A stretch of DNA of 64,000 bases, taken from a virus. The notes beneath the pieces were generated by a model. It saw only the letters and a list, made by a program, of their open reading frames with translations. It searched no databases and had not been told where the DNA came from. Made by a program: the position numbers and the translations under genes. Shown here piece after piece: positions 7,131 through 28,440 of the stretch (position 1 is its first letter; each line of letters opens with the position of its first letter). The stretch is from IMG/VR virus record IMGVR_UViG_3300027704_003324, positions 75,241-139,240 of that record, one strand, 5' to 3'.

Positions 7131-7763
7131 TTATATACAATTAGGAATTTTTAATGTTAAATCTTGAATAAGTTTAATTTCTTGTTGTTTAATTAATTCT
7201 GTCCATAGAATACTTCCTTCATATTGATCTCCATACTTTTTAATTAGTACTTTATCTAGAGAGTAGATATTATCTATATACTTATTATACAATATACGAA
7301 AAAGTTTCTTAAAAACCAACGGATGTGCAGAAAAAAATCTTTCGTCTATAGTTTCATGCAGAATCCTACCAAATATACAGTCACTATATTTAACTCCTTT
7401 CAATAAAGGGTAAGTATGTCTGTATGCTTCATTATAGTATTGTTTGACATTACTATCGAACGCTATACTGTCTATATCTAAATCTGGTTTACCTTTAATA
7501 ATTAAATCATATTCTTCTAAGTCTTTGATTAAGTTAACTGCTCTGTATGTAGAATGTAGTATTGAAAATTTTTTAGGTAGCTCTGAAAGATCTTGTACCT
7601 CTATGTTAGTATCCACTCCTCTAAGTTTACCTAGCCATCTTTTATTCTCTTTTGTGTTCCAAGTATGTATATATACGTCACAGTCATTATTATGTATAAA
7701 CTCTACAATGTTATCTTGTAATTTTTCAATATGGCCTGATAAGATCAGGGCTATTTTACTCAT
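7131..7763 (-). CDS. Putative glycosyltransferase-like protein
   Basis: KIALILSG...DVYIHTW...YDLIIKGKPD pattern of uncharacterised GT-A-like proteins seen in viral glycan clusters. Confidence 0.5.
   Translation of the reverse strand: MSKIALILSGHIEKLQDNIVEFIHNNDCDVYIHTWNTKENKRWLGKLRGVDTNIEVQDLSELPKKFSILHSTYRAVNLIKDLEEYDLIIKGKPDLDIDSIAFDSNVKQYYNEAYRHTYPLLKGVKYSDCIFGRILHETIDERFFSAHPLVFKKLFRILYNKYIDNIYSLDKVLIKKYGDQYEGSILWTELIKQQEIKLIQDLTLKIPNCI
7291..7320 (-). promoter_or_regulatory. Intragenic GTTG-N18-CGTATATT promoter
   Basis: GTTGGTTTTTAAGAAACTTTTTCGTATATT; same spacing as four other copies. Confidence 0.6.
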
Positions 7764-8848
7764 AATAGTGTTCTGGTACTTTTTGTACGGAATCTATCTA
7801 ATACGAAATTATTAAATTTCTTAAGTAGTAAGGTCTTGATATTAAACTCTTCTACACCGTGCTTAGTCCAAGGAGAATCTAAATGGAATTTTTCGATATA
7901 GCTATTATCAAAATAATGTTCTTTGTTTAGTAGTTTAGCTGGTTTAATAGCAGTGATATGTTTAGTACACATAGGATGATGCTCAAAGTGGATTTCAGCT
8001 GGTTTACAATCATCAGAAGATAAGTACATATACGGTTCATGTAGCAGGTTAGGAAGATTGGTAAACCAATATTCTATCTGTTCTACATAGTTAATAATTA
8101 GAGGTACCTTTATTTCCGTTGTATCTATATTCCATTCTATACCTATCTGTAAACTAATTTCATAATGCTCAAGGGGATGTGGATGGTTATCCAAATTTGG
8201 TTCCGGTAAAGATCCGTCTCGATTAGGGTAACTACAGTAGACTGAAGGCCATTTTCTTTTGTCTTCTATTCTTCTCATTTCAATACTCTTATCTAGAAAA
8301 TAGGGACTGTTGTAAAAGTTTTTTAGTTGAAAAAAAAGATCTGTCTCATTAACAATAGGATCAAAATTACTAATACCAAAATTATGATCTACTGGTTCAC
8401 CTAAAAAGGTTCCTATCCATGGTTCAAACATATGAATCATTTTCAGGTTAATCTTTTTTTGTTCTGATAATGCGATTGCACTCTTGATATAGCTTACTAA
8501 TTCTAATGCAGATTGAAGGGGAGAATGCCCTTTAATTATTTCATCTGGTATTTCTTCTTGACTAGACATAAGTCCATGTACTGAGTAGTCGCCTGCACTC
8601 TCTACTATTCTATCAAATCTACATAGGCTGCTCCATTGAATAATAACTGAATCTCCTTCTTTAATATCATGTTTTGTGATAGCATGTACAAACGTATTAA
8701 AAATAAATTGATTACCTCCGCCACATTTAGCGTAGTTATAACTCTCATCAAAAGTAGCTGCTAAGTAGTCTGCATATGTCGGCCATAGGTAATTTGTATA
8801 GCTACATCCGAATGCAAAAAATCTACTGTTTGAATCTTGTGTTTCCAT
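7760..8848 (-). CDS. SGNH/GDSL-like protein (putative acyltransferase/esterase)
   Basis: AFGCSYT block I, NYAKCGGGN block II, IIQWS, DNHP block V. Confidence 0.65.
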   Translation of the reverse strand: METQDSNSRFFAFGCSYTNYLWPTYADYLAATFDESYNYAKCGGGNQFIFNTFVHAITKHDIKEGDSVIIQWSSLCRFDRIVESAGDYSVHGLMSSQEEIPDEIIKGHSPLQSALELVSYIKSAIALSEQKKINLKMIHMFEPWIGTFLGEPVDHNFGISNFDPIVNETDLFFQLKNFYNSPYFLDKSIEMRRIEDKRKWPSVYCSYPNRDGSLPEPNLDNHPHPLEHYEISLQIGIEWNIDTTEIKVPLIINYVEQIEYWFTNLPNLLHEPYMYLSSDDCKPAEIHFEHHPMCTKHITAIKPAKLLNKEHYFDNSYIEKFHLDSPWTKHGVEEFNIKTLLLKKFNNFVLDRFRTKSTRTLL

Positions 8849-10001
8849 AATGTATTACTTTGATATCTTTATTAGTAGAATAAGATCTCCATGGGTCAAC
8901 TATAACAGATCCTTCCGGAAAGTCGTAATCATGATGTTTCCCCATATGTCCTAAAAGGTACACTGCTTTGTAAGGTTTTGTAGGGTCGTACTCTACTTTA
9001 TATTTCGAACCATAAGAAGATTCACAGAAATGTCCTGTAAGTATTGATGTTGATCCATCCTCGTAGTTTACATCTGGTTTATATGCTTTGCCTAATATAA
9101 CGATAGGTAAGTTTACTTTATTAGATTCTATTACTAATCGTTGTGCTAAGTTCTTAGCTTGTTTCTCTCTAGCATTCATTATAGCATCAAATAGATCGTA
9201 ACCTACATCTAACTTTTCAGCCATATACCGTAAAGCAATATTATCTCTTGGATGACATCCTCCACCGTCTCCCATTCCTGCTTTCATATAAGCCGGACCT
9301 AGTATCCTTTGAGTTGATCTTTCTAATGCTCCTGTAATAACGTCTACATTAATATTACCTGATTTCTCAGCAACGTCCTGTATCATATTAACTAAGGCTA
9401 CTTTAGTAGAGATAAAGGTATTGTAGAATATCTTTATACCTTCTGCTTCGTCCCAAGTACCTAATTCATATCTAGTGCCTTCAGTAATAAACGTTTCGTA
9501 AAATTCCAATAGTAATTTAGCATCTCCTGTTGTAGAACCGTCTTCTGTTCCTATAATAATCATTTCCGGATTAACCATGTCCCATTTTACTGTTCCCATT
9601 GCTATTAAGTAGGGGTTATAAATAAACCTTCCATTAGGTATTAAGTCAATAAATTCTCTACGGATTGTACCTGGTAGAACTGTTGATATTAATACTATGA
9701 GTTGGTCTTTAGAGACGTATTTGTTTGTTTCTTCGAGTACCTCTTTAACTATGTTATAATTAAAATCTTTATTAGGTAAATGAGCAGTAGGGTATCTACC
9801 GTCATAGTCTGGGTGATGAGGTGTTGGAACAGCGATAAAAATTATTTCTCTTCCTTTGCAGGCTTCTTCTATTGAAGCTACCATTTTAAAATTTTCTGGC
9901 TCTATGTTGCTAACGTCGTAACCAACTATATCATGCTTTTCAGCCATAACTTCAGCTGCCTCTTTTCCGAGCTTGCCTACTCCTATAAATCCTATTTTCA
10001 T
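8823..10001 (-). CDS. ugd: UDP-glucose/GDP-mannose 6-dehydrogenase family
   Basis: GFIGVGKLG Rossmann motif, FIAVPTP, STVLPGT, KIFYNTF, GDGGGCHPRD catalytic Cys, GKAYKP. Confidence 0.88.
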   Translation of the reverse strand: MKIGFIGVGKLGKEAAEVMAEKHDIVGYDVSNIEPENFKMVASIEEACKGREIIFIAVPTPHHPDYDGRYPTAHLPNKDFNYNIVKEVLEETNKYVSKDQLIVLISTVLPGTIRREFIDLIPNGRFIYNPYLIAMGTVKWDMVNPEMIIIGTEDGSTTGDAKLLLEFYETFITEGTRYELGTWDEAEGIKIFYNTFISTKVALVNMIQDVAEKSGNINVDVITGALERSTQRILGPAYMKAGMGDGGGCHPRDNIALRYMAEKLDVGYDLFDAIMNAREKQAKNLAQRLVIESNKVNLPIVILGKAYKPDVNYEDGSTSILTGHFCESSYGSKYKVEYDPTKPYKAVYLLGHMGKHHDYDFPEGSVIVDPWRSYSTNKDIKVIHYGNTRFKQ

Positions 10002-10031
10002 AAACTTCTTTTATCTATTATTAATATATGA

Positions 10032-10039
10032 TATAAATA
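10032..10039 (-). promoter_or_regulatory. TATTTATA putative late promoter inside modification island
   Basis: In the only sizeable intergenic gap of the island, ~31 nt upstream of the ugd ATG. Confidence 0.55.
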
Positions 10040-10060
10040 TCAATTTTACAACTTTAGTTA

Positions 10061-11206
10061 TTATTCTTTTATTATTGCGTTATCGATTGTCCCGAACTTT
10101 AAATCTAACATATCCCAATCATTATCATGTTTACCGTACTGTTTTACTAATCGTTTAAGAATTTCAGGAATGAATTTATGTTCTTTTAAAATTCTTTGGT
10201 AATTTTTTCTATTTCTTATTACCTTTTCTTCTGTAAGCTTTTTAATTTCATTAAAGTTATTAAAGTTATCTGAGTACAGGTATTTATCGTTAAGATTTTT
10301 TAGTTGAGCAGAGATTCCGTTTATCCTTCGTGAATATGGAGAATAAGCATCAAAAGTGTAATCAAATAATTCGTCATAAAGTTCAAAACCGTATGTTGTT
10401 AACATTTTATTAATATGTCTTCCTCCTGCTATAACAAAAGGAACTGCCCAATTAATAGCATTAAAAGTTTTTTCTGTCCAAAAAATTCCATCTGGTTGGG
10501 ATTCACTTATAATATGAATAGCCCCTTTCCATATCTCTTCTGGTGGAGAAGTTGAATATTGATTTACACTACCTTTAAATTTATCTCCGGGAAATGAATA
10601 TACCTTATTGTTATCTTCCCAGTGTTTAAATTTATATTCTCCTTCTGTAGTATCTCTATCGTTATGCCAGGTGTAGTGTAGAGCATTATCCAGTAAAGAA
10701 TCTTTAGCAAAAGTATCCATAAGTTCCATTCTATGATTATGTGCTCTGTTTATCATACAGGTACCTATCTTGTTTGGAACTATATTAGTACCTAATCTTG
10801 GGTTCAAAATATTACTTTCATTATCTCTATGGTATAGTAAACTGCCGTATAACCAGAACATAGGCCAGTAATGTGTAGTTGTATTTTCAACAGGTATAGG
10901 TTTAGGTACTATTTGCCCTCTACTTCCGTATACAATGTGAAGCTGTATATCTCTATCAATCAAAAGTTTTTCCATCTCCCTAATTGAATTTAAATCTGCA
11001 TCTTCTGCAAATCTAGGTTGGCTAGGATCTGTTTTGATATCGCTCCAGTTAAACTCCCATTCTTCAGCATTAAAAAATAGTATTTCTTTAACAGAGCTCC
11101 TATTGTGTTTAATTGAATTATAAATAGTGTCAAACAACGTACCTGATGTATATAACTTATTGTCTTGCCATTGTCTGAGTATTAAGAGTCCATTAATGTT
11201 TTTCAT
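10061..11206 (-). CDS. Uncharacterised GT-B-like protein (TEK family paralog 1)
   Basis: INRAHNHR, IISES, WTEKTF, PFVIAG, GFELYDELFDYTFD shared with 11775-13073 and 13970-15298. Confidence 0.55.
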   Translation of the reverse strand: MKNINGLLILRQWQDNKLYTSGTLFDTIYNSIKHNRSSVKEILFFNAEEWEFNWSDIKTDPSQPRFAEDADLNSIREMEKLLIDRDIQLHIVYGSRGQIVPKPIPVENTTTHYWPMFWLYGSLLYHRDNESNILNPRLGTNIVPNKIGTCMINRAHNHRMELMDTFAKDSLLDNALHYTWHNDRDTTEGEYKFKHWEDNNKVYSFPGDKFKGSVNQYSTSPPEEIWKGAIHIISESQPDGIFWTEKTFNAINWAVPFVIAGGRHINKMLTTYGFELYDELFDYTFDAYSPYSRRINGISAQLKNLNDKYLYSDNFNNFNEIKKLTEEKVIRNRKNYQRILKEHKFIPEILKRLVKQYGKHDNDWDMLDLKFGTIDNAIIKE

Positions 11207-11775
11207 AAAGTAGCGTATAAAGAATTTAGTATTTCTGTTGATGCACTATAGTCTTTAATCTCATAGTAAAGAGAAGTATATTCTTTGCTTTGTAGGTATT
11301 GTCTATCTACTCTACCTCCAAATAGTACTGCTACTCTATTATTATGTATATTAACTTCATTACTCCATTTGTTAATTAAATCATACATTAAATGGTTATT
11401 TTTCACATAAGTTACTTCTTTAGTTAAATCTAGTACTAATTTACATCTTCCGTCTCTGATGTCTTGTAGTACTTTCTCGGATATAACTTTAAATCCGCTA
11501 TTAATATTATTATAGAAGTAGGTGGGAGTTAGTACTTTTATTACATATAAATGTTTACTATCTACTATGTCCTTTATTTCTATATACTCTTGTGACTTTA
11601 AATCCGTAAGTAAATCAGAAGAACGGGTTCCATATCTAAAATAATCTTTCGGCAAAGTATGAAGCATAGTCATTTTATTGGATTCTTTTAGATTCCAGGT
11701 TTCAGATGTACCATTAGGCCTATTGAAGCCTAAAAGTGTATCGTACGATTCTATACTAAATTTAATTTTATCCAT
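11203..11775 (-). CDS. Stand-alone N-terminal domain of the TEK/SEK family
   Basis: KHLYVIKVLTPTYFYNNINSGFKVISEKVLQDIRDGRCKLV aligns with KHIYLVNVFNPEFFKLNIDIGFDLMHERFKKDVIEKRCKVV of the adjacent gene. Confidence 0.55.
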   Translation of the reverse strand: MDKIKFSIESYDTLLGFNRPNGTSETWNLKESNKMTMLHTLPKDYFRYGTRSSDLLTDLKSQEYIEIKDIVDSKHLYVIKVLTPTYFYNNINSGFKVISEKVLQDIRDGRCKLVLDLTKEVTYVKNNHLMYDLINKWSNEVNIHNNRVAVLFGGRVDRQYLQSKEYTSLYYEIKDYSASTEILNSLYATL

Positions 11776-13073
11776 TATAACAAAGGAGTATTAACTGCTT
11801 TTAACTGGTTTATAAGGCAATGCTGCGGTTCATAGTCTTCTCCATGTCCCCAGTTTAGTCTAATTTTGTATTCAAAATGACTTCTATTATGTGCAAGTAT
11901 TTCTTGCATGTCTTTTCTCATCTCATGTAACTCAAGAGTCGACAGTAGTGAGAGTTTTTTTAATTCTTTAGCAATATGTTCTGATCTATTAGTCCAATCT
12001 TCAAACTGATCATATTCTTCATTAAACCATTTACTAAACGTTTTATACCCTTCACATTTTAAATATTGAAGAGTACCTACAGAACCTAACACAAAAAATG
12101 GATGTCCCATAATAATAGGTTTCCATATTTTTTCAGATACAAATAATGTCCCTTTATTAACTAATGTTTCTGTTATTACTGAGCAAAATGTAGACTCGTA
12201 ATCTTGTATTTCTATATTACATGCTAAGTTAAAAAAAGTATTTTTATTATCTATTTGCAAAGGTAGTTGTTTTGCTACTTCTCTCCAATCTCTATCATAG
12301 ACTCCATGTTGCCTTATAGGATTAGAGTGGTGTGCATCTACAGGTTTACCTAAACTTGCTCTTCCTCTATCTAAAATACCGTACTCTTGTAGTTTAGCTA
12401 TGAAATGTAAACGTGAAGGTCTAGGTGCTCTATTATAGGTAAGAAAAAGTTGTTTATTATCTACAGGTTTAAACTTACTTACGGGGTTTACTACTTCATT
12501 TTTATTCCAAGCACTAAATGCTTCATAGTGGTGTACTCTAATGCCGTTGTTTCTAACTTTAATGTGTTCACTAGCAATAGCATTACCTGTAATAAAATGA
12601 ACACTGTTTTTAGGAAAACCTGCTTTTATTCTCCAATTTTCTACTATTTCAATATCGTTATTACCCTCCATTTGAGAATACCCTTCAAATACATACCAGA
12701 TAACAACTTTGCATCTCTTTTCTATGACATCCTTCTTAAACCTTTCATGCATTAAATCGAAACCTATATCAATATTAAGTTTGAAGAATTCTGGGTTGAA
12801 TACGTTAACTAGGTATATGTGTTTTTCGTTATGCTCTAATGTTTCGCTATCTTTCCAAATAATCTCTTCTGAATAAAATGTATGAGGGTAAGCATCGTTG
12901 TTAAGCTTACCGTGATCAAAAAATTCTCCTGTTTCACCAAATATGTTCCATGTACCTAAAGTATAAGGTATGTGAAATTTACCTGTTTCTTTCATATACC
13001 ATGAAGGAGACGATAGATTTGGTCTAGGTCCTTTATATATAGAATCGTAATTTTCTCTAGATAATGTTATCAT
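11775..13073 (-). CDS. Uncharacterised GT-B-like protein (SEK family paralog 2)
   Basis: FLTYNRAPRPSR, SVITET, FVSEKIWKPI, HPFFVLG, GYKTF. Confidence 0.55.
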   Translation of the reverse strand: MITLSRENYDSIYKGPRPNLSSPSWYMKETGKFHIPYTLGTWNIFGETGEFFDHGKLNNDAYPHTFYSEEIIWKDSETLEHNEKHIYLVNVFNPEFFKLNIDIGFDLMHERFKKDVIEKRCKVVIWYVFEGYSQMEGNNDIEIVENWRIKAGFPKNSVHFITGNAIASEHIKVRNNGIRVHHYEAFSAWNKNEVVNPVSKFKPVDNKQLFLTYNRAPRPSRLHFIAKLQEYGILDRGRASLGKPVDAHHSNPIRQHGVYDRDWREVAKQLPLQIDNKNTFFNLACNIEIQDYESTFCSVITETLVNKGTLFVSEKIWKPIIMGHPFFVLGSVGTLQYLKCEGYKTFSKWFNEEYDQFEDWTNRSEHIAKELKKLSLLSTLELHEMRKDMQEILAHNRSHFEYKIRLNWGHGEDYEPQHCLINQLKAVNTPLL

Positions 13074-16304: not shown

Positions 16305-16807
16305 AATCCTGTTATTTGTAGAGTATATCTTGGTTCAATACCAATATTACTAGCAGCATGCTCTACATCTGTGCTATAAATTACATAATCTCCTCTTTTC
16401 CAATTTACTATAGCCTTTCCTTCTGCTTCAAAATAATGTCCAGGCTTCCAGTCTTCTATAAATATGATGGCTCTACATACTCTATCAATACTTCTTTCTA
16501 ATTTAAACCTTTTACAGTATGTCTGAAAGTGGTCAATATGTGGAGGCATAATTTCAAGCTGTACCATTTTATAGAAGGTATAACCACAATGTGTTAATCC
16601 TAATTCATTTGATACATCTTCTACCCATTCTGGCATTGGGTTTTTACTATTATAAAGAGCTCCTAGAAAAGTATCATGAGTGTATCCTTGATTTCTCCAG
16701 TTATTTAGTTCTTTTTTGTTTGTAAGATTCTGTTTTGTATAAGGAAAATGCAAATATTCATTTCCCATTACTGTGTTAATCTTACCTTGTTTAACCCAAT
16801 TATCCAT
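16289..16807 (-). CDS. 2OG-Fe(II) oxygenase/cupin-fold protein
   Basis: PPHID (HxD), WKRGD, HAASNIG, RYTLQITG. Confidence 0.7.
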   Translation of the reverse strand: MDNWVKQGKINTVMGNEYLHFPYTKQNLTNKKELNNWRNQGYTHDTFLGALYNSKNPMPEWVEDVSNELGLTHCGYTFYKMVQLEIMPPHIDHFQTYCKRFKLERSIDRVCRAIIFIEDWKPGHYFEAEGKAIVNWKRGDYVIYSTDVEHAASNIGIEPRYTLQITGLWTKK

Positions 16808-21608: not shown

Positions 21609-22965
21609 AGAATTCTTTTAGTTCTGGAAATGTTTCTTGAAAGTTTGTACCTCGTCTTTCGTCTAATTGGTCTACAAAGGTTACAAATTCCTTCCTAAAT
21701 TTATCTACGCTAAACATACTCTTGCCAATTGCGTAGTCATAGATTCTTTTTATCTTTTGTATTTCAACATTTGAAAAGCCGTAATTATCTTGATGATACT
21801 CTTTCATACCATAATATAGTGCTTTTTTGGCAGAATTCAAAATTAATTCCTTATCTTTATCCTCTAATATTTTAACAGATAAATGTGATGGCCACCTAAG
21901 GTAGGAAGTATCTAATGATACTGCTGATATTTTATATCTTTTACCGTTATGATGTTTCTTTTTCATCTCAAATATTCTATCTAGTAAGTGATCGTATGAA
22001 AATACTGATAGGGCATTAAAGGTAGCCATAATATTGATCGTAACTTTAGGTAACTCTGTAAGTATCTTGTCTACATTTTCCCAAAACTTCTCATAATCTA
22101 AACCGAATCTTGTATATTCTGCTTGTGCTCCTTTTGCTTCTACAGATGTATATACTACAAACTCTTTAACCTTGTCTTGGTCAGTAATTATCTTAGCTTT
22201 AGCAATAAACTTATCTATTAATGCGTCTGGTACTCCTAAGTTGGTGTTTATACCAATCGAAAGTTTAGTATTAGGATTTTCTTCTTCTATAATATAATCT
22301 AGTACTTTAAAGGTATCTTTTGATAATAAAGGTTCTCCTCCTGTAATACGGAATGTATGTAGATCTCTATATAATGAAGGCCACCATTTCCACCATGCTT
22401 CAACATAGGGATTATACTCTGATTGTAGCAATGGCATTTCATTTTTCTTTCGTAATGTTTCGATCTCATTAAATTGACCGTCTGCTGCTTTGTATGGTCC
22501 GTGTTTTTCTATTTCTTGTACCCAAGTAGATGAGTACTGAGGTCCGCAGTAAGCACATTTAAAATTGCATGTATTAGAAAAAGACACTTCTACATACTTT
22601 GGATTAATATCATCTCTCCAATTGGATTTTGCAATTTGATCGAATTGACCTATTGACCACTCTTCAGAAGACTTAAATACTCTATCAGAAAATGAGTTAG
22701 AATTATCTTCTACACTCCAACAGTAGTTGCATTCATCAGGTTTACCTCCCTCTAACATTTCCTTACGTTTTAATTTCTTAAAACGGGTATTATGTAGTGC
22801 AGATGGATTCCTTTTAATCTCTGCTATAGAAATTTTATGAGGAGTAGGATGGTGACATGAATGTGTCATCCCGAGTCCTAGATGTATAGTAACTTGTGTC
22901 CATTTTGCTAAACAAAATCCACATCCTACTTTATCTAATTTATCTTTTACTTGTTGTGAATTCAT
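21586..22965 (-). CDS. Radical SAM protein with N-terminal Cys-rich (twitch-like) domain, paralog 2
   Basis: CNFKCAYC, TGGEPLL; N-terminal FCLAKW..SCH..CNYCW. Confidence 0.88.
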   Translation of the reverse strand: MNSQQVKDKLDKVGCGFCLAKWTQVTIHLGLGMTHSCHHPTPHKISIAEIKRNPSALHNTRFKKLKRKEMLEGGKPDECNYCWSVEDNSNSFSDRVFKSSEEWSIGQFDQIAKSNWRDDINPKYVEVSFSNTCNFKCAYCGPQYSSTWVQEIEKHGPYKAADGQFNEIETLRKKNEMPLLQSEYNPYVEAWWKWWPSLYRDLHTFRITGGEPLLSKDTFKVLDYIIEEENPNTKLSIGINTNLGVPDALIDKFIAKAKIITDQDKVKEFVVYTSVEAKGAQAEYTRFGLDYEKFWENVDKILTELPKVTINIMATFNALSVFSYDHLLDRIFEMKKKHHNGKRYKISAVSLDTSYLRWPSHLSVKILEDKDKELILNSAKKALYYGMKEYHQDNYGFSNVEIQKIKRIYDYAIGKSMFSVDKFRKEFVTFVDQLDERRGTNFQETFPELKEFYAKHKRG

Positions 22966-24374
22966 AGTTTAATGTTTATCATCTTCGCCCAAGGAGTAAG
23001 TACGTCTTCTCCTAATAATTCATAATTCACTTGTTTTATTCCGTCTTGCTTATAATCTATTTTACCGTTTTGCATTTGTAATACATAACGTTTTTCATTC
23101 TCTGCTGTCGTTTCTCCTTTAACAAATTTACCTCCTATTATGCCTTCATCTTCATGTGGTAAACATCTAAATCTACCTTCCCTTCTAAAAGGTAAAATTG
23201 AGTTTGGAATTTCTATATCTTCTATTATAGTTTCGGTAGCATAATCATCAACCTTATCATGGTCTGGGTTATTAAAGTCTAAATTTATTTTAAGTTCATC
23301 TTGAGGTATATTGTTATGTAGGTCTGCAACCTCTTCTGGTCTTAAGTCTCTTCCCCAAGCAAATACTTTTGCTATATCTCCTTTGAAGTACTTAATAGTG
23401 CTTTCATCTTTTTCAGAAGGAGTAGTACCTAAGTACCAATCTGCTGATCCATACCCTTTCAATTTACCTTGCCATTTATAAGGCGATGGACTTCCAATTC
23501 CACCTCTAGAATCTACTTCACTGCCGTTTAAGTACATATGAGAGAGTTGCTCTCTATTAGAGAATACCATTGTTACCCAACTCCATTGTTCATCGTACCT
23601 CTTTACCCACATATAGTTATGTTGGTTAAACGAGTTCCAATATGTAGCTGATATAGCTCTAGAATTATTAAATCCTATACCATAATCATACCCTGGTATT
23701 CTTAGAACTGGGTATTCTACATATCTTCTGTCTTTCTGACCGATTAAGAATATAGGGTTCTTTTCAGGTTGCTGACGGGGTCTCATCAATACTGATATAG
23801 TGTGACTTTTAGAAGTTAGCCCTCTTAATTTTCTTTCAAAAGGAATTTTAATGAAAGAATTATTTCCGTTAAATCTCCTATAAGTTTGTTCTTGAGGAGT
23901 TTTAGTTATAAAAGTATTATTAGTAAGCCCTTCTTCATGGCATCGCCAAAATAAATCATCATCTTCCATACCCCAATCCCAATAATTATTAGAATATCCG
24001 TTTGTTTTCTCTAAATGCTCTTTAGTAAATACAACTGCACCTCCAAAATATTCATGATATTTAAGTTGGTAATTCATTTGAGATATCTTAGTAGCAATAT
24101 GTCTTGGTCCTTCTGTAGGGTAAGAGTAATCTGCTCCTTGTTCTGGTATCATGTCTATATCATGAAACACTACATAGTCGCATCCTTCTTCAAAAGCTAC
24201 TTTAGCTGCAATATTCTTAGTAGCTCCTCTATTAAAAAGCTTATCGTCAGCTTGATGACAAAAGTACATATGAAATTCTATGCCCTGTTCTTTTAAGTAC
24301 TTACCTGTTTTAGGTATGAACTCATTTAGGTGTTCTTCTCTATTACGGTAAGGTACACATACTCCTAGTTTCAT
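22962..24374 (-). CDS. GT7 (beta-1,4-galactosyltransferase-like) with inserted LamG-like domain
   Basis: VPYRNR, FNRG, HDID, YFGG, NGYSNNYWDWGMEDDD; insert FNGNNSFI...YLNG...FKGDIAKV; C-terminal FRCLPH..DGIKQVNY. Confidence 0.85.
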   Translation of the reverse strand: MKLGVCVPYRNREEHLNEFIPKTGKYLKEQGIEFHMYFCHQADDKLFNRGATKNIAAKVAFEEGCDYVVFHDIDMIPEQGADYSYPTEGPRHIATKISQMNYQLKYHEYFGGAVVFTKEHLEKTNGYSNNYWDWGMEDDDLFWRCHEEGLTNNTFITKTPQEQTYRRFNGNNSFIKIPFERKLRGLTSKSHTISVLMRPRQQPEKNPIFLIGQKDRRYVEYPVLRIPGYDYGIGFNNSRAISATYWNSFNQHNYMWVKRYDEQWSWVTMVFSNREQLSHMYLNGSEVDSRGGIGSPSPYKWQGKLKGYGSADWYLGTTPSEKDESTIKYFKGDIAKVFAWGRDLRPEEVADLHNNIPQDELKINLDFNNPDHDKVDDYATETIIEDIEIPNSILPFRREGRFRCLPHEDEGIIGGKFVKGETTAENEKRYVLQMQNGKIDYKQDGIKQVNYELLGEDVLTPWAKMINIKL

Positions 24375-25771
24375 AATTTTACTGTTAAGTGGTGGAAATT
24401 AGCTACATCAATTATACTGTGTACCTTGTATTTTAAATTGTTGATTCCATCTTCTGATGTATCTCTATACCCTCGTTTAACTTCATTCATAAACTTAAGT
24501 TGATTATACCTTGTTGTAATATCTTTCCAACCGGTGTTTAGAAACCCATTTTCACCATGTTCTAGTTGTCTATATTTTGATGTTCTTCTAAATGGAATAC
24601 ATATAAAGTCTGTTATATCCTCCTTGTATGGCACTATTTCAACGTCATTTAATTCTCCTAAAATATGATCTTTACCTAAGTCTACTACTTTGTAATCTTT
24701 TACAGTTAAAGGTACAAAGTTATGTTGTAAATATTGTTGGCTCTTGTACGAACCAAATTGCATACCCAATGGAACTCCTTTATTAGTAGCAACAGAATGT
24801 ACTTCTTTCTGTGAAAGAGCTGAATTCCATATAGCTACTTGCTGTATTCTACCTTTAAAGAAATGTTCTTCTCCTTTACGTGCAGGGAATGAAGCTCCAA
24901 TATACGAGTGTTTTTGAGACTGGTAATTTCTTAAACCTGTAGGAATAATCTTAGAGCATTCTTTTACTCCATTAAAGTACAAAGTAAGTTCTTTTAGCTC
25001 AGTATCCCAGGTTACTGTTATATTAGACTGTAATGGTGGTTTAACTTTCGTATTTAAGTAGTGATGGTTTCTTTCTGAGTCAAATAATTCAACGGTAAAT
25101 CTACCAAAACTAGTGTACATTATATTGAAATCATATCCAGGTATACCAAATATAGTAAAATTATCTTTGTCTTTTAGGTGGTCATACGTTATCTCTTCTG
25201 GTTGAGCTGTTACTGTAATCGAAAAATCACCTCTAGTCCTAAGAGTATTAGGAACTTTAATATATGCTGAATTACCGTTAAACTTAAATGCTGAGGTATT
25301 ACCGGAAGCTGCTTTATAAGGTATTGTATCTAATTTAAGTCCGTTTAGTCTTGCTCTAAAAAGTAGATCATCATCTTCGAAACCCCATCCCCAGTATTCA
25401 TTAGAAAACCCATTAATACGTATAAAATCATTAATAGGAAATAATGTAATACCTCCGAAGTATTCAGGGAACGGTAAATTCTGTGTAGCTAAATGTATAG
25501 GGTATTTTGAATATTTATAATCTACGTTAGTAGGGAGCATATCAATATCATGCAATACTATGTATTCACATTCTAACTCTTTAGCTTTAAGTACACCTAT
25601 ATTTAATAACTTCCCTCTATTGAAAATCTTTTCATTGTCTTGTTCTACAATAACTAGTTCGTAAGGTATCTCTTGTTGAGATAATGCATAATGTATAGCT
25701 GTCTTAAACTTAAAGAGCTGTTCGTACCTATCTCTATATGGTACAATAACTCCTAGTTTAGGTTTACTCAT
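24371..25771 (-). CDS. GT7 (beta-1,4-galactosyltransferase-like) with inserted LamG-like domain
   Basis: VPYRDR, FNRGKLLNIG, HDID, YFGG, INGFSNEYWGWGFEDDD; insert FNGNSAYI...LYFNG...FKGRIQQVAIWNSALS; C-terminal DGINNLKY. Confidence 0.87.
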   Translation of the reverse strand: MSKPKLGVIVPYRDRYEQLFKFKTAIHYALSQQEIPYELVIVEQDNEKIFNRGKLLNIGVLKAKELECEYIVLHDIDMLPTNVDYKYSKYPIHLATQNLPFPEYFGGITLFPINDFIRINGFSNEYWGWGFEDDDLLFRARLNGLKLDTIPYKAASGNTSAFKFNGNSAYIKVPNTLRTRGDFSITVTAQPEEITYDHLKDKDNFTIFGIPGYDFNIMYTSFGRFTVELFDSERNHHYLNTKVKPPLQSNITVTWDTELKELTLYFNGVKECSKIIPTGLRNYQSQKHSYIGASFPARKGEEHFFKGRIQQVAIWNSALSQKEVHSVATNKGVPLGMQFGSYKSQQYLQHNFVPLTVKDYKVVDLGKDHILGELNDVEIVPYKEDITDFICIPFRRTSKYRQLEHGENGFLNTGWKDITTRYNQLKFMNEVKRGYRDTSEDGINNLKYKVHSIIDVANFHHLTVKL

Positions 25772-25976
25772 CTACATTCTTTGCTTTAGTTAGGTTAGTA
25801 TGCCATTCAGCTAAATAGAATTGAAGTCTATCTCCCCATTCGTCTTTATCTACTTCTTCAAACCACACAGTAAGTGCATCTAAACTCATTGCGATTTTTT
25901 CTAAGGCTTTAACTTTTCTTTCTTCTTGTATAACTTTTTCTTGAGCTATAACTTGTTCTTGTGTTTCCTTACTCAT
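25764..25976 (-). CDS. Hypothetical protein
   Basis: 70-aa helical ORF, translationally coupled, preceded by an internal promoter. Confidence 0.65.
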   Translation of the reverse strand: MSKETQEQVIAQEKVIQEERKVKALEKIAMSLDALTVWFEEVDKDEWGDRLQFYLAEWHTNLTKAKNVDE

Positions 25977-26815
25977 ATCTTAACTATTAATTTACGTAAT
26001 TTATTCCAGTGTTTATAATCTATATAATCAATATACGAACTTTCAGTTAAATTATCAACTAAAAATTCAGGTTTTTCAATGTCAATTTTCCAATCACTGC
26101 GTGCTATTGCTCTATACATTTTACTGTATTCTTTAGAAAATGCATATTCTTGTTTAATATCTGCTACTTCTTGTATTCTACTTAGACACGTACTATCCCA
26201 CTTAAAGTGGTGTACCTGAGTGAATACTTCTTCTATAGGCATTCTCTTAGGATGTGAATCTCCCCAGCTATTAGTACCGTCTTTGAATTGAGCATAATGC
26301 TGTCCAGATGTAACATCTTGATATCCTTTCATTAATGTACATTTATTGGGACATGCTCCAGACATCGGATATCTAAAGAAACCTGCTAAAGGAAAAGCTT
26401 CGTTAATATTAGTATCTCTCGTAACTAAGGGGAAAGTACCATTAGTACCTACTCTATCTATGAACCCACCTGTGACAAAGTCATAACCATGTCTCTCACA
26501 CTTCTCTATGATGTCTTCAATCGGTTCTGGGTATACTTGTAATTCATCATCATCTGATACTATCCACCAGTCGTTTGGGCGTTGGTTTTTTACATAATTA
26601 TAGAGCTCTGTTACTCTTTCCCAGTTGTACTTATCTTCTGTTACAACTAAATAAGGTTTTATCCCTAGTTCTTGTATTTCCTCTAAAATACCGTCATCTT
26701 CTGATGATCTATAAACTACTATATATGCTTTTTCAATATCGCGTTCATAGTGCTTTAACATATGGGGTAACATATGTGTATTTTTGCCGACTACTGTAAC
26801 TAAGTTAGGTTTCAT
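25973..26815 (-). CDS. GT2-like glycosyltransferase
   Basis: MLPHMLKHY, DWWIVSDDDEL (DxD), GQH, HHFKW. Confidence 0.7.
   Translation of the reverse strand: MKPNLVTVVGKNTHMLPHMLKHYERDIEKAYIVVYRSSEDDGILEEIQELGIKPYLVVTEDKYNWERVTELYNYVKNQRPNDWWIVSDDDELQVYPEPIEDIIEKCERHGYDFVTGGFIDRVGTNGTFPLVTRDTNINEAFPLAGFFRYPMSGACPNKCTLMKGYQDVTSGQHYAQFKDGTNSWGDSHPKRMPIEEVFTQVHHFKWDSTCLSRIQEVADIKQEYAFSKEYSKMYRAIARSDWKIDIEKPEFLVDNLTESSYIDYIDYKHWNKLRKLIVKI
26030..26059 (-). promoter_or_regulatory. Intragenic GTTG-N18-CGTATATT promoter
   Basis: GTTGATAATTTAACTGAAAGTTCGTATATT, upstream of the 70-aa ORF and GT7 genes. Confidence 0.6.
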
Positions 26816-27582
26816 TTTTTACGTAATATAGTTAATCCTGTTGAACTTGGTTTAGTAGGTAAGTTTCCTTCATTAAAAAAGTCGAATCTTTGCCATTCAT
26901 CTGATATCTCTTGTATAAATTTAGCTGGTCCGTTAGCGAACTCTTCGTGATGGTGTTGATCTGATACATCTTTGGTTACTATATGGTTGTTAGCATAAGT
27001 GATGTCTGTATCGTGTATTGATATAATAGCGTTAGGGTTAAGAATTTGACTATATAGTTCAAAATCTTCTTTTACGTTTTCGTATGAATGTCCTGCATCA
27101 ATATGTAAGTAGTCTACCTTTATATCTTCTTTTACGAAAAAGTTATGAAATGCTTTTACTGTTGTTGTATTAATTACTCTAGGATGAAAAGTTTTCCGTA
27201 GAAATGAGTCTTTATCTAACCAATCTACATTACCTCCTATTCCGTTTGCTGCGTCTACTAAGTAAGTAGCTCCTATATCTCCCCAGTTAAAGTCTTTATT
27301 GCCAGTAAAAATTTCTTGGTCATAAAGATCTATTCTAGCTTGAGTCATAATTCGGGGTATAAATCCAGCTCCTGAACCTAAACATACGCATACCTTAGCT
27401 CTCATATATTGAATAAAAGAGTATATAAGCATTCCATCTCCTAAATGGTACTTAGTAGCTCCATGAGTCCATCTGTAGTCTACAGGTTCATGCTTAACCT
27501 TAACGTTACCATCCTTATCTAAACTGTAAGTCTGGTTGTTAGTTATCTTGTCAAATATAAAACCTTTGTCAACTATGCTCAT
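26812..27582 (-). CDS. Class I SAM-dependent methyltransferase (Methyltransf_24-like)
   Basis: VCLGSGAG motif I, DYLHIDAGHSYENVKEDF, ISIHD. Confidence 0.82.
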   Translation of the reverse strand: MSIVDKGFIFDKITNNQTYSLDKDGNVKVKHEPVDYRWTHGATKYHLGDGMLIYSFIQYMRAKVCVCLGSGAGFIPRIMTQARIDLYDQEIFTGNKDFNWGDIGATYLVDAANGIGGNVDWLDKDSFLRKTFHPRVINTTTVKAFHNFFVKEDIKVDYLHIDAGHSYENVKEDFELYSQILNPNAIISIHDTDITYANNHIVTKDVSDQHHHEEFANGPAKFIQEISDEWQRFDFFNEGNLPTKPSSTGLTILRKK

Positions 27583-28440
27583 TTATTGTCTTTTTATGCT
27601 ACTTAGATCTATTAATTTATGAAAATTAATGCAATTAAGCAACATTTCTGTCTCTTCTTTATATGGATGGTCTGGGTCATCTTTTTTATACCATGCTTTT
27701 AGTGGCCCATAATGTCTAAAAGTATCCCAACTATCTTCAATAGATATAATACCTTCCCCAGGTTTTGATTCCCATTGCCATTTATCACAGTCCCAAGGAG
27801 TTGATATAACAGGAAGATAGTCTACTTTATTTTTGTCAAGTAAGTGTCTAAGAAGTAATTGTTCAGCAAATATAAGGTACTTGGAATGTGGAGCTTTGAG
27901 AAGAGTAAGTTCTTCCATTAATTTAATACTTAAATTTGCATATTTCTGAGTAAATATAGGATCTGGTAAATAAAGAAAGGATACGTTACATGATTCTGTT
28001 TGCCATCTTGCTCTATAAGATAATTTTCTTACGTATGGATCTAAGTTAGTAGGATAGTATCCTCTACCGTTTTCGTAGTTAGCTACTAAAACTCTGCCTT
28101 CTTTAAAGTTATGTTTGAAGGGCTTAAATACTAAAGTATCTCCGTCCATTATAACACATGGTTCAGTTTGAAGTGCTAAAACTTGAAGTTTAGTTCCGGC
28201 CCAAAATACTTCTTTATTGAAATTATGTTCAAAGTCAATAGATATGACTTCATCCCATAGTGAAAGAACCTCTAGTTTATTAAGGAGTTCATACGTCATA
28301 GGGTCGACGTATATTACAGTATGATCTTCTGGATGGTTCCGTTTCCATAAAGAAACAGAGGCAAACATAACGAGTAAATTAAATTTACTATAAGCTTGAG
28401 TATCTCTTTTTAGATTCTCGTGTACCCAAATTATTTTCAA
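27583..28440 (-). CDS. GT-A-like (DxD) protein of unknown function
   Basis: FWAGTKL..QTEPCVIMDGD, NVSFL, IFAEQ, HYG. Confidence 0.55.
   Translation of the reverse strand: MKIIWVHENLKRDTQAYSKFNLLVMFASVSLWKRNHPEDHTVIYVDPMTYELLNKLEVLSLWDEVISIDFEHNFNKEVFWAGTKLQVLALQTEPCVIMDGDTLVFKPFKHNFKEGRVLVANYENGRGYYPTNLDPYVRKLSYRARWQTESCNVSFLYLPDPIFTQKYANLSIKLMEELTLLKAPHSKYLIFAEQLLLRHLLDKNKVDYLPVISTPWDCDKWQWESKPGEGIISIEDSWDTFRHYGPLKAWYKKDDPDHPYKEETEMLLNCINFHKLIDLSSIKRQ

Follow-up and report, generated by a model that had tools for sequence, protein, structure and literature searches.

A probable glycan-synthesis island with a conserved six-gene core between the tail fibre and tail sheath genes of an uncultured marine myophage

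Why a tailed phage should carry some 21 kb of sugar-processing genes between its long tail fibre and its tail sheath, and on what their product would be placed, is the question raised by this locus. The source contig (139 kb, estimated to be 84% complete, so that absences from it are provisional) comes from an uncultured marine myophage, kin of Flavobacterium phage immuto, and the hosts of this immuto-like lineage are probably Flavobacteriia. In the window, i.e. the whole 64,000-nt stretch analysed, a preliminary description had placed a glycan island between fibre and sheath; this observation is confirmed, and the interpretation given there, glycosylation of the virion or of the host surface, is partly supported. 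The block has no counterpart in phage immuto, where the corresponding position is taken up by a 12-kb fibre region of quite another make-up, and the span from the neck genes to a conserved 91-aa ORF and the sheath is ∼37 kb here versus ∼12 kb in immuto. The surrounding features are as follows.

34590–34597, minus strand: promoter-like motif TATTTATA in the fibre gene leader.
29508–34559, minus strand: long tail fibre of 1683 aa with a Ser+Thr content of 28%; it opens the terminator-free run that includes the island.
28951–29499, minus strand: 182-aa ORF that travels with fibre and cassette in the immuto-like clade.
28461–28946, minus strand: 161-aa Ser/Thr-rich (30%) ORF that likewise travels with fibre and cassette.
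10032–10039, minus strand: promoter-like motif TATTTATA in a 59-nt gap, 30 nt upstream of the dehydrogenase start.
6854–7129, minus strand: 91-aa ORF marking the conserved right edge of the variable region; its immuto counterpart (43% identity) lies immediately upstream of the sheath gene.
6804–6829, minus strand: terminator-like hairpin closing the fibre-island run; the sheath-leader TATTTATA at 6795–6802 comes next.
4965–6707, minus strand: tail sheath (Pfam; 59% identity to the immuto sheath).

The island (7131–28440) is made up of 22 co-oriented minus-strand ORFs of at least 70 aa, mostly overlapping, which are contiguous as had been reported but number one more than the 21 first counted, a 70-aa ORF (25764–25976) having been added. 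Fourteen of the 21 junctions are overlaps of 1–26 nt, six are gaps of 0–6 nt, and one is a 59-nt gap (10002–10060), the sole intergenic gap of at least 30 nt within the island; gaps of 8, 4 and 20 nt link the fibre gene, the two small ORFs and the island. As the preliminary description had it, no obvious terminator separates fibre genes and island: on the coding strand from 34559 to 6829 there is no terminator-like site except a weak 6-bp stem within the fibre ORF, and a second terminator-like hairpin, besides that at 6829–6804, lies at 4423–4394. The structural-gene motif noted at 10032 proved real. In the window, TATTTATA occurs 19 times on the coding strand and once on the opposite strand, a total that is not above chance (20 observed vs 14.7 ± 4.3 in shuffled sequence), but 10 of the 19 copies are wholly intergenic while intergenic DNA makes up 2.2% of the window (binomial P 2.5e-12). 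The motif, which is promoter-like, marks the leaders of structural genes. A single leader motif serves most of the fibre-island run, which, together with the 14 overlapping junctions, argues for co-expression. Four metatranscriptome runs, from two studies, yielded contigs that cover the island, and one of these contigs crosses the island-fibre junction (28332–29513) with zero mismatches, which is a weak hint; contigs from RNA libraries may be carried-over DNA.

Six genes, in collinear order, form the core of the island, and a variable tail of sugar-tailoring genes comes after them.

26812–27582, minus strand: core gene 1, class I SAM methyltransferase (Methyltransf_24, Pfam E 2.3e-10), in 78 of 163 loci.
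25973–26815, minus strand: core gene 2, GT-A glycosyltransferase (Glyco_tranf_2_4, Pfam 30.4 bits vs 27.5 cut-off).
25764–25976, minus strand: core gene 3, conserved 70-aa protein; start and stop overlap both neighbours.
24371–25771, minus strand: core gene 4, GT7 (beta4GalT-like) enzyme with LamG/ConA-like insert (Pfam GT7 and Laminin_G_3; PDB beta4GalT1, E 3e-28).
22962–24374, minus strand: core gene 5, paralogous GT7-LamG glycosyltransferase (Pfam GT7 and Laminin_G_3).
21586–22965, minus strand: core gene 6, radical SAM enzyme with an N-terminal four-Cys (twitch-like) region (NF033640, 334 bits vs 170 cut-off).

The first reading of these genes as a methyltransferase, a GT2-like enzyme, two GT7 enzymes and one of two radical SAM proteins agrees with the family searches. 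In core gene 2 a DDDE stretch is invariant, with D88, D90 and E91 the same across 19 sequences, and in core gene 6 the invariant cysteines are C18, C37, C79 and C82, and C133, C137 and C140 (predicted structure, AF2 pLDDT 87.7). The 70-aa protein is virus-only, with 53 distinct homologs in related loci and nearest Atlas clusters that are 100% viral (906, 89 and 137 members). The catalytic N-part of the GT7 enzymes aligns with animal beta-1,4-galactosyltransferases (CAZy GT7; beta4GalT1, beta4GalT7), with an E value of 3e-28 when a single sequence is used and of 3e-47 with a profile, and the HDxD and WGWGxEDDD motifs are invariant; core gene 5 retains the invariant HDxD and WxWGxEDxD residues (alignment A3, both paralogs included). 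Unlike the animal enzymes, those of the phage have no membrane anchor and carry a ∼270-residue insert including the LamG/ConA-like domain. In core gene 4 this domain follows the WGxEDDD segment and precedes the C-terminal GT7 segment, and the profile matches beta4GalT1 in two collinear pieces, 2–151 and 421–470; in both enzymes the LamG domain replaces the acceptor-side loop region.

The full core is present in 55 of 80 related viral loci, a further 15 are short of only a detectable 70-aa gene, and the remaining 10 miss at least one core gene, mostly at contig ends (the 80 contain near-duplicates, so that these counts are not independent). Gene order is kept at 33–50% protein identity. As expected by the preliminary description, the core is linked to structural genes in relatives. 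The fibre in the window ends in a Peptidase_S74 intramolecular chaperone domain (Pfam PF13884, E 2e-13, residues 1596–1648), and a same-strand upstream ORF ending in this domain is found in 44 of the 80 loci. Where at least 6 kb of upstream DNA is available, a fibre-like gene precedes the core in 42 of 46 loci, 30 with an S74-ended ORF and 12 more with a long Ser/Thr-rich ORF (at least 1000 aa with at least 20% Ser+Thr). The 182-aa ORF has a tblastn match in 23 of 163 loci, each time between fibre and cassette. In three loci (L009, L045, L086) the core plus two or three genes lies directly between fibre and sheath, and the sheath comes after the island in three same-lineage relatives (G001, G028, G008); in two jumbo contigs the cassette is 55–74 kb away from the sheath. 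A tblastn search with three of the six core genes (the GT7-LamG and GT2_4 proteins), plus the SEK proteins described below, gave no match among 50,697 deposited phage records, while the GT7-LamG family has 2154 clusters in metagenomes.

The other sixteen genes of the island are listed here.

27583–28440, minus strand: DUF6734 protein, 285 aa (Pfam PF20508, E 7e-13, 49 bits vs 27 cut-off).
21021–21608, minus strand: 195-aa ORF between the two radical SAM genes, so placed in 20 related loci.
19455–21020, minus strand: second N-twitch radical SAM enzyme, 521 aa (NF033640, 302 bits, cut-off 170).
18412–19452, minus strand: 346-aa protein, O-FucT/FUT8/NodZ-like as a lead (nearest Atlas clusters, 0.95–0.97, with O-FucT, FUT8_N_cat or NodZ families).
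17813–18412, minus strand: half-size DegT/DnrJ/EryC1-type PLP aminotransferase, 199 aa (Pfam 59.2 bits).
16810–17820, minus strand: StrB1-type amidinotransferase (PDB 1bwd, E 1.8e-89, residues 1–335).
16289–16807, minus strand: 172-aa protein, possibly a cupin/2OG-Fe(II) oxygenase (Pfam Asp_Arg_Hydrox, E 0.06 only).
15300–16304, minus strand: extended SDR NDP-sugar epimerase/dehydratase (Pfam Epimerase, E 8.7e-43).
13970–15298, minus strand: SEK-motif GT-B-like paralog, 442 aa (in alignment A1, with the invariant E302, E314 and K315 columns).
13070–13963, minus strand: possible SGNH/GDSL-like protein (Pfam Lipase_GDSL, 22.9 bits, below the 23.6 cut-off).
11775–13073, minus strand: SEK-motif protein, GT-B fold (AF2 pLDDT 87.7).
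11203–11775, minus strand: free-standing N-domain of the SEK GT-B family, 190 aa (hhalign 99.5%, E 2.8e-22, columns 6–180 of A1).
10061–11206, minus strand: TEK-motif GT-B-like paralog, 381 aa (in A1 at 17% identity, invariant columns kept).
8823–10001, minus strand: NDP-sugar (UDP-glucose-type) dehydrogenase (Pfam PF00984 and PF03721).
7760–8848, minus strand: 362-aa ORF, homologs in 16 loci.
7131–7763, minus strand: 210-aa ORF, last island gene, adjoining the sheath in the short island versions L009, L045 and L086.

Family searches bear out the general picture of an island for nucleotide-sugar tailoring and transfer, with some losses in detail. The ugd, SDR epimerase, DegT, amidinotransferase and second radical SAM assignments stand. 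For the SDR protein, the top PDB match is UDP-glucose 4-epimerase (E 1.8e-43) and no NCBIfam equivalog cut-off is reached, while the dehydrogenase scores 140 bits against TIGR03026, below the cut-off of 189.8. The short DegT form is conserved (median homolog length 196 aa in 27 loci). The three proteins described as TEK/SEK GT-B-like, with a free domain, belong to one unnamed GT-B family. The member at 11775–13073 is structurally nearest to GT10-type fucosyltransferases (VIA Z 11.9 to 6eji; for FUT9, Z 11.4, rmsd 4.1, 267 aligned), and a fusion with an SDR epimerase is seen in 9 of 98 homologs. The fucosyltransferase-like label (18412–19452) keeps its Atlas lead but has no Pfam or PDB sequence match; of the two SGNH proteins, that at 13070–13963 is weak and that at 7760–8848 has no Pfam, PHROGs or NCBIfam match at E 0.01. 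The 2OG oxygenase and DxD GT-A-like calls are likewise weak, and the latter gene (27583–28440), with its DUF6734 match, is at most a possible glycosyltransferase. Family searches gave no assignment for 7131–7763, 21021–21608 and 25764–25976, and the 195-aa ORF has no detectable likeness to the LamG insert.

The reading that we favour, tentatively and at slightly less than an even chance, is a cytoplasmic glycan assembly line in a hypervariable fibre region, with the phage's own fibre or other virion proteins as the most likely acceptors. All 22 proteins appear soluble, and their genes follow the long fibre gene on its own strand as a single run that no terminator interrupts. Host UDP-sugars would be oxidised by the Ugd-like enzyme and epimerised by the SDR protein, the short DegT enzyme would aminate a sugar, the StrB1-type amidinotransferase would turn the amine into a guanidino group, and the radical SAM, methyltransferase and SGNH-like proteins could tailor the sugars further. 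Up to eight glycosyltransferases (GT2_4, two GT7-LamG, three GT10-like GT-B, one O-FucT-like and perhaps DUF6734) may then attach them to fibre proteins while the cell is still intact, the LamG inserts serving to select the acceptor. The sequences gave no sign of an acceptor site; the proposed [ST]GS 'sequon' is enriched to an equal degree in immuto, a phage without the cassette. Against this reading, a sub-module of short DegT, 2OG-like protein and amidinotransferase occurs in a non-structural region of the cultured cyanophage S-SCSM2R.

Rather unlikely, though the strongest of the alternatives, is late remodelling of the host envelope, in which O-antigen, capsule or surface glycoproteins would be altered via host lipid carriers and flippases; if true, superinfection would be blocked, or progeny kept from sticking to debris. 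Peripheral cytoplasmic glycosyltransferases that build lipid-linked O-antigen units likewise have no membrane spans, so the span-free island proteins are compatible with a host-surface target by way of host flippases. Ugd, SDR epimerase, aminotransferase and SGNH-like genes are also typical of polysaccharide loci. No membrane spans are predicted in any of the 22 proteins, however, nor is there a flippase or polymerase in the island or a Bac_transf initiating transferase in the contig. Among 185,579 prokaryote species genomes, 70 of the 80 loci kept have a bare GT7 domain only, which is in keeping with envelope remodelling, but the full cassette is in five, all phage-like MAG contigs, and on two of these (L165, L169) fibre, sheath or tube genes are matched as well; among these hits, no bona fide bacterial locus has the conserved core. 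This argues that the core was not copied from a host polysaccharide locus. The cassette's position behind a same-strand fibre gene across wide divergence, and behind a structural-gene leader motif with no terminator ahead, also speaks against a host-surface target. Envelope remodelling is nevertheless the published reading for glycosyltransferase-rich host recognition clusters, O-chain modification being favoured (PMC7029224), and similar cyanophage genes have been read as serving cell-wall modification (PMC12801897).

It is improbable that the island is mixed cargo at a recombination hot spot, the core, the guanidino-sugar module and the GT-B paralogs having no single product or acceptor. The fibre region is a known hot spot that collects cargo genes (PMC7029224), and the adjacency of island and fibre could be partly historical. 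Sub-modules do recombine freely: the core stands alone in L009, L045 and L086, the DegT, amidinotransferase and cupin genes have other partners in 19 loci within L090–L114, in L162 and in S-SCSM2R, the radical SAM gene is alone between sheath and terminase in eight loci, and immuto has its different fibre region. Overlap of most junctions, the one leader motif and the constant order of the six core genes point the other way.

Slimmer still is the chance that the product is a free small molecule, an aminoglycoside-like guanidino pseudo-oligosaccharide made by the twitch radical SAM, DegT, StrB1-type and glycosyltransferase enzymes. In the streptidine branch of streptomycin biosynthesis, an StsC-type aminotransferase is followed by the StrB1 amidinotransferase; in the island a DegT-family aminotransferase adjoins the StrB1-type enzyme, whose closest solved homolog, over its full length, is StrB1, and by analogy the pair suggests amine-to-guanidino conversion. 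The island aminotransferase is half-size, however, and the context is one of phage glycosyltransferases, with no inositol or cyclitol enzyme, kinase, exporter or resistance gene among the 22 ORFs. For the radical SAM enzymes, no solved enzyme, BtrN included, is matched in sequence at E 0.1, and peptide maturases and nucleotide enzymes are tied among their structural matches. A single small product, moreover, would not call for some eight transferases. The homologous genes of S-SCSM2R (ORF305–310) were called 'antibiotic synthesis genes', or cell-wall modification genes, in PMC12801897. They comprise a short DegT (ORF305, 195 aa, 52% identity), a 164-aa 2OG-like protein (ORF308, annotated 2OG-Fe(II) oxygenase family, 27.5%) and an inosamine-type amidinotransferase (41%), interleaved with glycosyltransferases; they lie among non-structural genes, and S-SCSM2R has no GT7-LamG, N-twitch radical SAM or SEK GT-B proteins, its radical SAM being a 266-aa enzyme of another family.

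Least probable by our estimate is DNA hypermodification, in which the transferases would decorate modified bases of the phage genome: the T4 alpha- and beta-glucosyltransferases match the GT-B paralog in structure (Z 11.3 and 10.1) but tie with many GT-B enzymes, amidinotransferase homologs are present in Campylobacter phages, a group with modified guanine, and the genome encodes the 7-deazaguanine precursor enzymes QueD and QueC (contig positions 52346–52768 and 58974–59648). Against it, the deazaguanine genes lie 16–23 kb outside the window, the island is in the morphogenesis region behind the fibre gene and the 139-kb contig has no ThyA-type hydroxymethylase and no TGT/DpdA match, which fits the original dismissal of DNA modification.

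Virion glycosylation, the favoured reading, has parallels elsewhere. In giant viruses (chlorovirus capsid glycans, mimivirus fibril glycans), autonomous glycosylation clusters decorate the virion surface, with virus-encoded nucleotide-sugar tailoring enzymes, soluble glycosyltransferases and methyltransferases as here, although these viruses belong to another realm and use other enzyme families. In mycobacteriophages, glycosyltransferases encoded by the phage act within the cytoplasm on structural proteins of the phage itself, and glycans were measured on capsid and tail-tube C-termini (Freeman et al. 2023, as described in PMC12619734); something similar is proposed here, with the fibre as the suspected acceptor and a far larger enzyme set drawn from different families, among them GT7-LamG and N-twitch radical SAM. 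Loci of this general kind are already in print as 'host recognition clusters' in pelagimyophages and cyanomyophages: according to Zaragoza-Solas et al. 2020, such a cluster is a large hypervariable part of the structural module that combines tail-fibre genes with UDP-glucose 6-dehydrogenase, numerous glycosyltransferases and radical SAM cassettes, and in the accessible part of that paper (PMC7029224) a conserved six-gene core, GT7-LamG insertion enzymes and a link to an S74-ended fibre are not dissected. The lineage here is immuto-like, unlike the phages of those clusters. What is new is the collinear six-gene core, conserved across distant uncultured phages, which may equip them to glycosylate their own fibres.

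The window is the final 64 kb of a 139,240-bp viral contig with an estimated completeness of 84%, and every long ORF in it lies on the minus strand. The nearest deposited phage is Flavobacterium phage immuto (59% identity in the sheath protein), and the stretch recurs in marine metagenomes from 13 studies. Because the head and fibre genes lie on one side of the glycan island (7131-28440) and the sheath, tube and baseplate genes on the other, the island is placed within the morphogenesis region.

Structural genes on either side of the island, in gene order (window positions; source of the assignment in brackets)
57014-58588, minus strand, terminase large subunit (PHROGs/Pfam)
55071-56987, minus strand, portal (PHROGs/Pfam)
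47564-49156, minus strand, major head protein (PHROGs/Pfam)
45614-46762, minus strand, head-tail adaptor (PHROGs/Pfam)
between the head-tail adaptor and the 1683-aa fibre, minus strand, several Ser/Thr-rich fibre-like proteins (PHROGs/Pfam)
29508-34559, minus strand, 1683-aa fibre with a C-terminal Peptidase_S74 chaperone domain in the last ~120 residues (Pfam)
4965-6707, minus strand, sheath, past the island (PHROGs/Pfam)
4440-4925, minus strand, tube, past the island (PHROGs/Pfam)
past the island and after the tube, minus strand, T4-type baseplate protein (PHROGs/Pfam)

The preliminary description had counted 21 co-oriented genes. The shared orientation holds, but 22 ORFs of at least 70 aa are present between 7131 and 28440. 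They are as tightly packed as described: 14 of the 21 junctions overlap, six have gaps of 0-6 nt, and one has a gap of 59 nt. Likewise, the run from fibre genes into island is free of terminators, the coding strand being clear from the fibre start to 6829 save for a weak stem of 6 bp within the fibre ORF. This run ends in a hairpin at 6829-6804, just ahead of the sheath leader. The borders are well defined relative to immuto, as both phages have neck genes on one flank and a 91-aa ORF, sheath and tube on the other; between these flanks there are 37 kb here versus a non-homologous 12-kb fibre region in immuto. The island is covered by contigs from RNA libraries, one of them running across its junction with the fibre, although strand, level and ends are not readable from them and DNA carry-over is uncontrolled.

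A motif of structural genes had been noted at 10032, and TATTTATA is found there. The coding strand carries 19 copies and the opposite strand one, and 10 of the 19 coding-strand copies are wholly intergenic, where intergenic sequence makes up 2.2% of the window (P 2.5e-12). The signal is positional, since the raw count is no higher than chance (20 vs 14.7 +/- 4.3). Genes with a copy in their leader include those for the tube, sheath, long fibre, portal and terminase.

Sites of the leader motif
3310, 4942, 6795, 10032, 34590, 35238, 43986, 50363, 55059 and 57003, minus strand, TATTTATA

The motif is frequently preceded by A or C, and with its strong strand and position bias towards structural-gene leaders it is probably a promoter element of the structural operons in this phage. 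It differs from the sigma-70 consensus and also from what we take to be the Bacteroidota promoter motif. Its "late" timing is inferred from the genes downstream of it.

Six genes of the island recur as a unit. A viral contig collection was searched with the GT7-LamG and radical SAM proteins, giving 80 and 79 loci from 93 and 113 confirmed matches, and gene order was obtained by tblastn of all window proteins against both sets of loci. The order is fixed: methyltransferase, GT2_4, 70-aa protein, GT7-LamG, GT7-LamG, radical SAM. All six genes are found in 55 of the 80 GT7-LamG loci, and 15 more lack only a detectable 70-aa gene, counts that overstate independence because the loci contain near-duplicates. 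The remaining 10 lack one or more core genes, mostly at contig ends. With identities to the core proteins of the window dropping to 33-50%, this order has been kept over long divergence. What follows the core is variable and can include a second radical SAM gene with a 195-aa ORF, SEK paralogs, an SDR epimerase, a dehydrogenase, and a DegT-amidinotransferase-cupin module. At three loci (L009, L045 and L086) the core and two or three further genes lie directly between fibre and sheath, which argues that the core is independent of the tailoring genes.

The core also keeps company with a fibre gene. In an iterated search, an S74 domain ends a same-strand upstream ORF in 44 of the 80 loci. Upstream sequence extends for 6 kb or more in 46 loci; of these, 30 show the S74 domain, another 12 an ORF of at least 1000 aa with at least 20% Ser+Thr, and four neither feature. 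Three immuto-like relatives have the sheath gene after the island, in the same orientation and 11-20 kb past the searched core gene. Sheath adjacency does not hold as a general rule, with a sheath match in 5 of 28 searched records and a distance of 55-74 kb in two jumbo contigs.

The long fibre is the fastest-changing gene and has a variable repeat content. In a near-identical contig (L005) most island genes are 97-100% identical (lowest 96%), and the long fibre, 1749 aa there, is 91% identical. RNA-library contigs include a fibre variant that skips 838 nt (32369 to 33208). The tripeptide [ST]GS was considered as a glycosylation sequon and rejected, being equally enriched in immuto, which has no cassette (gp056, 12 vs 1.3 expected; sheath, 7 vs 1.2 expected). 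In the window it is in excess in the 1562-aa fibre at 39243-43931 (26 vs 5.8 expected by composition) and in several other structural proteins, and shows no enrichment in the fibre adjoining the island (3 vs 4.6 expected). The excess is probably a structural repeat feature rather than a mark of the island.

Outside uncultured viruses the core is scarce. A tblastn search of 50,697 deposited phage records at E 1e-5 finds nothing for the GT7-LamG, GT2_4 or SEK proteins, and the radical SAM enzyme has one good match among deposited phages, in the Ralstonia jumbo phage RsoM2USA (41.5%). The 70-aa core protein falls in virus-only Atlas clusters. Prokaryotes were scanned with one genome per species (185,579 species) using two peptide patterns, which distant copies can escape, and 80 of 115 relatives were kept. 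The whole cassette is present in five of these 80 loci, all of them MAG contigs (Flavobacteriaceae, Flavobacteriales, Pelagibacterales and others), two of which (L165 and L169) also have fibre, sheath or tube matches. Another five have a full-length GT7-LamG alone, and 70 have only the ~150-residue GT7 domain. As the full cassette appears on those five MAG contigs only, the core would not be a borrowed host polysaccharide locus, within the limit of a two-pattern scan.

Both GT7 proteins (22962-24374 and 24371-25771) match Pfam Glyco_transf_7N and 7C above the cut-offs, and also Laminin_G_3. Homology to the catalytic domain of beta4GalT is significant (PDB beta4GalT1, E 3e-28 with a single sequence and E 3e-47 with a profile). 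All 22 aligned sequences, both paralogs among them, share H74, D75, D77, W127, W129, G130, E132, D133 and D135, and the HDxD and WxWGxEDxD motifs are kept without exception in the two; we take these to have the roles of the metal-binding DxD and the WGWGxEDDD. The 22-member profile aligns collinearly to beta4GalT1 over two separate pieces, 2-151 (E 7e-45) and 421-470, the latter 50 positions being collinear with the beta4GalT1 C-terminus in a weak match of only 8 bits. About 270 residues separate the pieces, including a LamG/ConA-like segment that matches a sialidase-type lectin domain (E 1.6e-8), and the LamG domain is a predicted insertion in the GT7 fold. The insert lies where, in animal GT7 enzymes, a mobile loop presumably closes over donor and acceptor, and this placement suggests that it may select the acceptor. 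The family comprises 2154 clusters in a metagenome protein collection; among the 120 listed, all have two GT7 domains and 111 also have Laminin_G_3. A third, weaker Glyco_transf_7C match (32 bits) lies outside the window and far from the island, in a 384-aa open frame (contig 11594-11710).

For the other sugar enzymes, the families proposed beforehand were largely recovered. The GT2_4, Methyltransf_24 and DUF6734 calls are solidly supported by Pfam, as are the family assignments of the extended SDR epimerase and the NDP-sugar dehydrogenase, and two GT7, two radical SAM and one amidinotransferase gene are present as described. The DegT/DnrJ/EryC1 protein (17813-18412; Pfam 59.2 bits vs a cut-off of 19.8) was also correctly named, but has 199 aa, short of the two-domain ~360 residues, and covers part of the 360-position profile; this reduced length is conserved, the median over 27 loci being 196 aa. 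Both SGNH calls are weak, one scoring 22.9 bits against a cut-off of 23.6 and the other having no match, and the reading of the DUF6734 protein as a DxD GT-A enzyme is weak or unsupported. The proposed 2OG oxygenase reaches Pfam E 0.06, a weak call, and its homolog in S-SCSM2R, a cultured cyanophage with a partly homologous cluster, is annotated as 2OG oxygenase at 27.5% identity. The fucosyltransferase-like protein (18412-19452) resembles O-FucT/FUT8/NodZ clusters of the ESM Atlas (scores 0.95-0.97), which is a lead. PHROGs, NCBIfam and permissive Pfam searches gave nothing usable for 7131-7763, 7760-8848, 10061-11206, 21021-21608 or 25764-25976, and three ORFs (7131-7763, 21021-21608 and 25764-25976) are left without an assignment. 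A free-standing LamG at 21021-21608 finds no support (hhalign probability 0.3%). Complex prediction of the 70-aa core protein with the GT7-LamG and GT2 proteins scored 0.00 in two runs, for which controls were not folded, and weighs neither way on binding.

The amidinotransferase (16810-17820) is homologous over its full length to the StrB1-type enzyme 1bwd (E 1.8e-89, residues 1-335) and also to GATM (E 1e-51). It ends in ...GGSFHCCT, a Cys of which we take to be catalytic. Full-length homologs at 26-29% identity are found in 12 Campylobacter phage records (H45-H56, the CP220/CPt10 group) and two Enterococcus phage records, where no role is annotated.

The two radical SAM enzymes (21586-22965 and 19455-21020) belong to NCBIfam NF033640, with an N-terminal twitch (334 and 302 bits vs a cut-off of 170). 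The CxxxCxxC cluster motif (C133, C137, C140) is invariant in 20 sequences, and so are N-terminal cysteines C18, C37, C79 and C82, candidate ligands of an auxiliary Fe-S cluster. Single-sequence searches found no solved homolog at E 0.1, and a profile search of solved proteins gave generic matches only (MoaA at E 6e-4). In structure comparison SkfB, BlsE, PFL-AE, viperin, anSME, MoaA and DesII are tied at Z 12-14, so that peptide maturases and sugar-nucleotide enzymes rank together. Eight loci (L116, L118, L121, L126, L127, L131, L132 and L136) have a lone N-twitch radical SAM gene between sheath and terminase large subunit, with no glycosyltransferase detected, and because it stands alone there the enzyme may have its own role in morphogenesis regions; L130 shows only radical SAM and terminase. 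RsoM2USA (L164) is the sole cultured phage with a close homolog; there a sheath-like gene and a homolog of the SDR epimerase lie ~8 kb upstream of the radical SAM gene, and the genes are annotated as hypothetical only.

The three SEK/TEK paralogs (10061-11206, 11775-13073 and 13970-15298) belong to a family without a Pfam model, none of whose 98 metagenomic homologs has a name beyond "hypothetical". SDR epimerase fusions account for nine of them (P0076, P0080 and P0083-P0089; 707-732 aa), and their NDP-sugar epimerase domain ties this unnamed family to nucleotide sugars. A GT10 assignment finds no sequence match, as no Pfam family is hit at E 0.01 by any of the three; 10061-11206 has none even at E 5, and 11775-13073 has no PDB sequence match at E 10. 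An AlphaFold (AF2) model of the SEK protein at 11775-13073 (pLDDT 87.7) has a GT-B fold with two Rossmann domains. It matches 45 chains at Z of at least 8, and the 50 matches listed are almost all GT-B glycosyltransferases. Among these the top Z is 11.9, with FUT9 at 11.4 (rmsd 4.1, 267 aligned), FUT11 at 11.0 and H. pylori FucT at 10.6; GT10 fucosyltransferases are in the top rows but tied with other GT-B transferases (Z 10-12). The free domain described alongside (11203-11775, 190 aa) is indeed a copy of the SEK family N-domain (hhalign 99.5%).

Together, the island enzymes cover nucleotide-sugar oxidation, epimerisation, amination, amidination and methylation, with up to eight transferases. 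None of the 22 proteins has a 19-residue hydrophobic window of at least 1.6, indicative of a membrane span, and the contig (84% complete) has no match to PF02397, the Bac_transf initiating transferase that is a hallmark of O-antigen and capsule loci. The simplest reading would be a cytoplasmic glycan assembly line expressed together with the fibres. Its acceptor may be the fibre or other virion proteins, to which we give a little under an even chance; four points favour it: the linkage to fibres persists, the core is phage-exclusive, the GT7 enzymes contain lectin inserts, and export genes are lacking. Against it, S-SCSM2R has its homologs of the DegT, the 2OG-like and the amidinotransferase gene among non-structural genes; the [ST]GS excess in cassette-less immuto and the tied structural matches of the radical SAM enzymes also weigh against it. 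The fuller proposal is more tentative: the six-gene core could be a widespread, phage-exclusive machine with which uncultured aquatic myophages glycosylate their giant tail fibres, here with a radical-SAM-tailored, methylated and guanidinylated (cationic) glycan.

The main rival, remodelling of the host envelope through host carriers and flippases, is possible, if on the unlikely side. According to the accessible part of PMC7029224, it is the published reading of the host recognition cluster (HRC) of pelagi- and cyanomyophages. Peripheral O-antigen transferases likewise have no membrane spans, and host genes could supply an initiating transferase and a flippase/polymerase or exporter. The absence of export genes from the island, the phage-exclusive core and the persistent linkage to fibres speak against it. 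It is improbable that the genes are mixed cargo in a recombination hot spot, and slightly more so that they make a free aminoglycoside-like product (compare the available portion of PMC12801897). DNA hypermodification is very improbable: homologs of QueD (PTPS) and QueC, of the 7-deazaguanine precursor pathway, are present (contig 52346-52768 and 58974-59648), but lie outside the island, 16-23 kb upstream of the window, and the contig has no ThyA-type hydroxymethylase and no match to the Pfam model for TGT/DpdA.

That aquatic myophages have glycan genes in their fibre region is already known in general. In the HRC, fibres occur with glycosyltransferases, a UDP-glucose dehydrogenase and cassettes of radical SAM genes, as far as the accessible text of PMC7029224 goes; the island likewise occupies a hypervariable fibre region between conserved structural genes and is loaded with glycosyltransferases and radical SAM enzymes. 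Virus-encoded glycosylation of virions is known in mycobacteriophages (described in the part of PMC12619734 that was available). The six-gene core, the pair of GT7 enzymes with inserted LamG and the link to S74-ended fibres were not found in the literature searched, which excluded subscription journals, and the genes may appear in supplementary files of PMC7029224 and PMC12801897; the Immutovirus papers, by their listing and abstracts, yielded nothing on the island genes.

What is new is the isolation of a conserved, phage-exclusive core that lies behind a fibre gene in distant lineages. In marine myophages, fibre regions rich in glycosyltransferases have so far been read, without experiments, as changing the host surface, and if the host is remodelled here too, the island would be a large, late-expressed surface-editing system without export genes of its own. 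If instead the six-gene core glycosylates fibres, it would be the first general fibre-glycosylation system in phages of Gram-negative hosts, and a hidden determinant of marine host range and particle stickiness. A cassette decorating fibres would provide new parts for glycoengineering (the lectin-inserted GT7, the N-twitch radical SAM enzyme and the half-size DegT/StrB1 pair), and a guanidino sugar on a biological surface would be unusual chemistry. How abundant ocean phages adsorb, which hosts they infect and how stable their virions are would then depend on a post-translational layer that genome-based host prediction misses.
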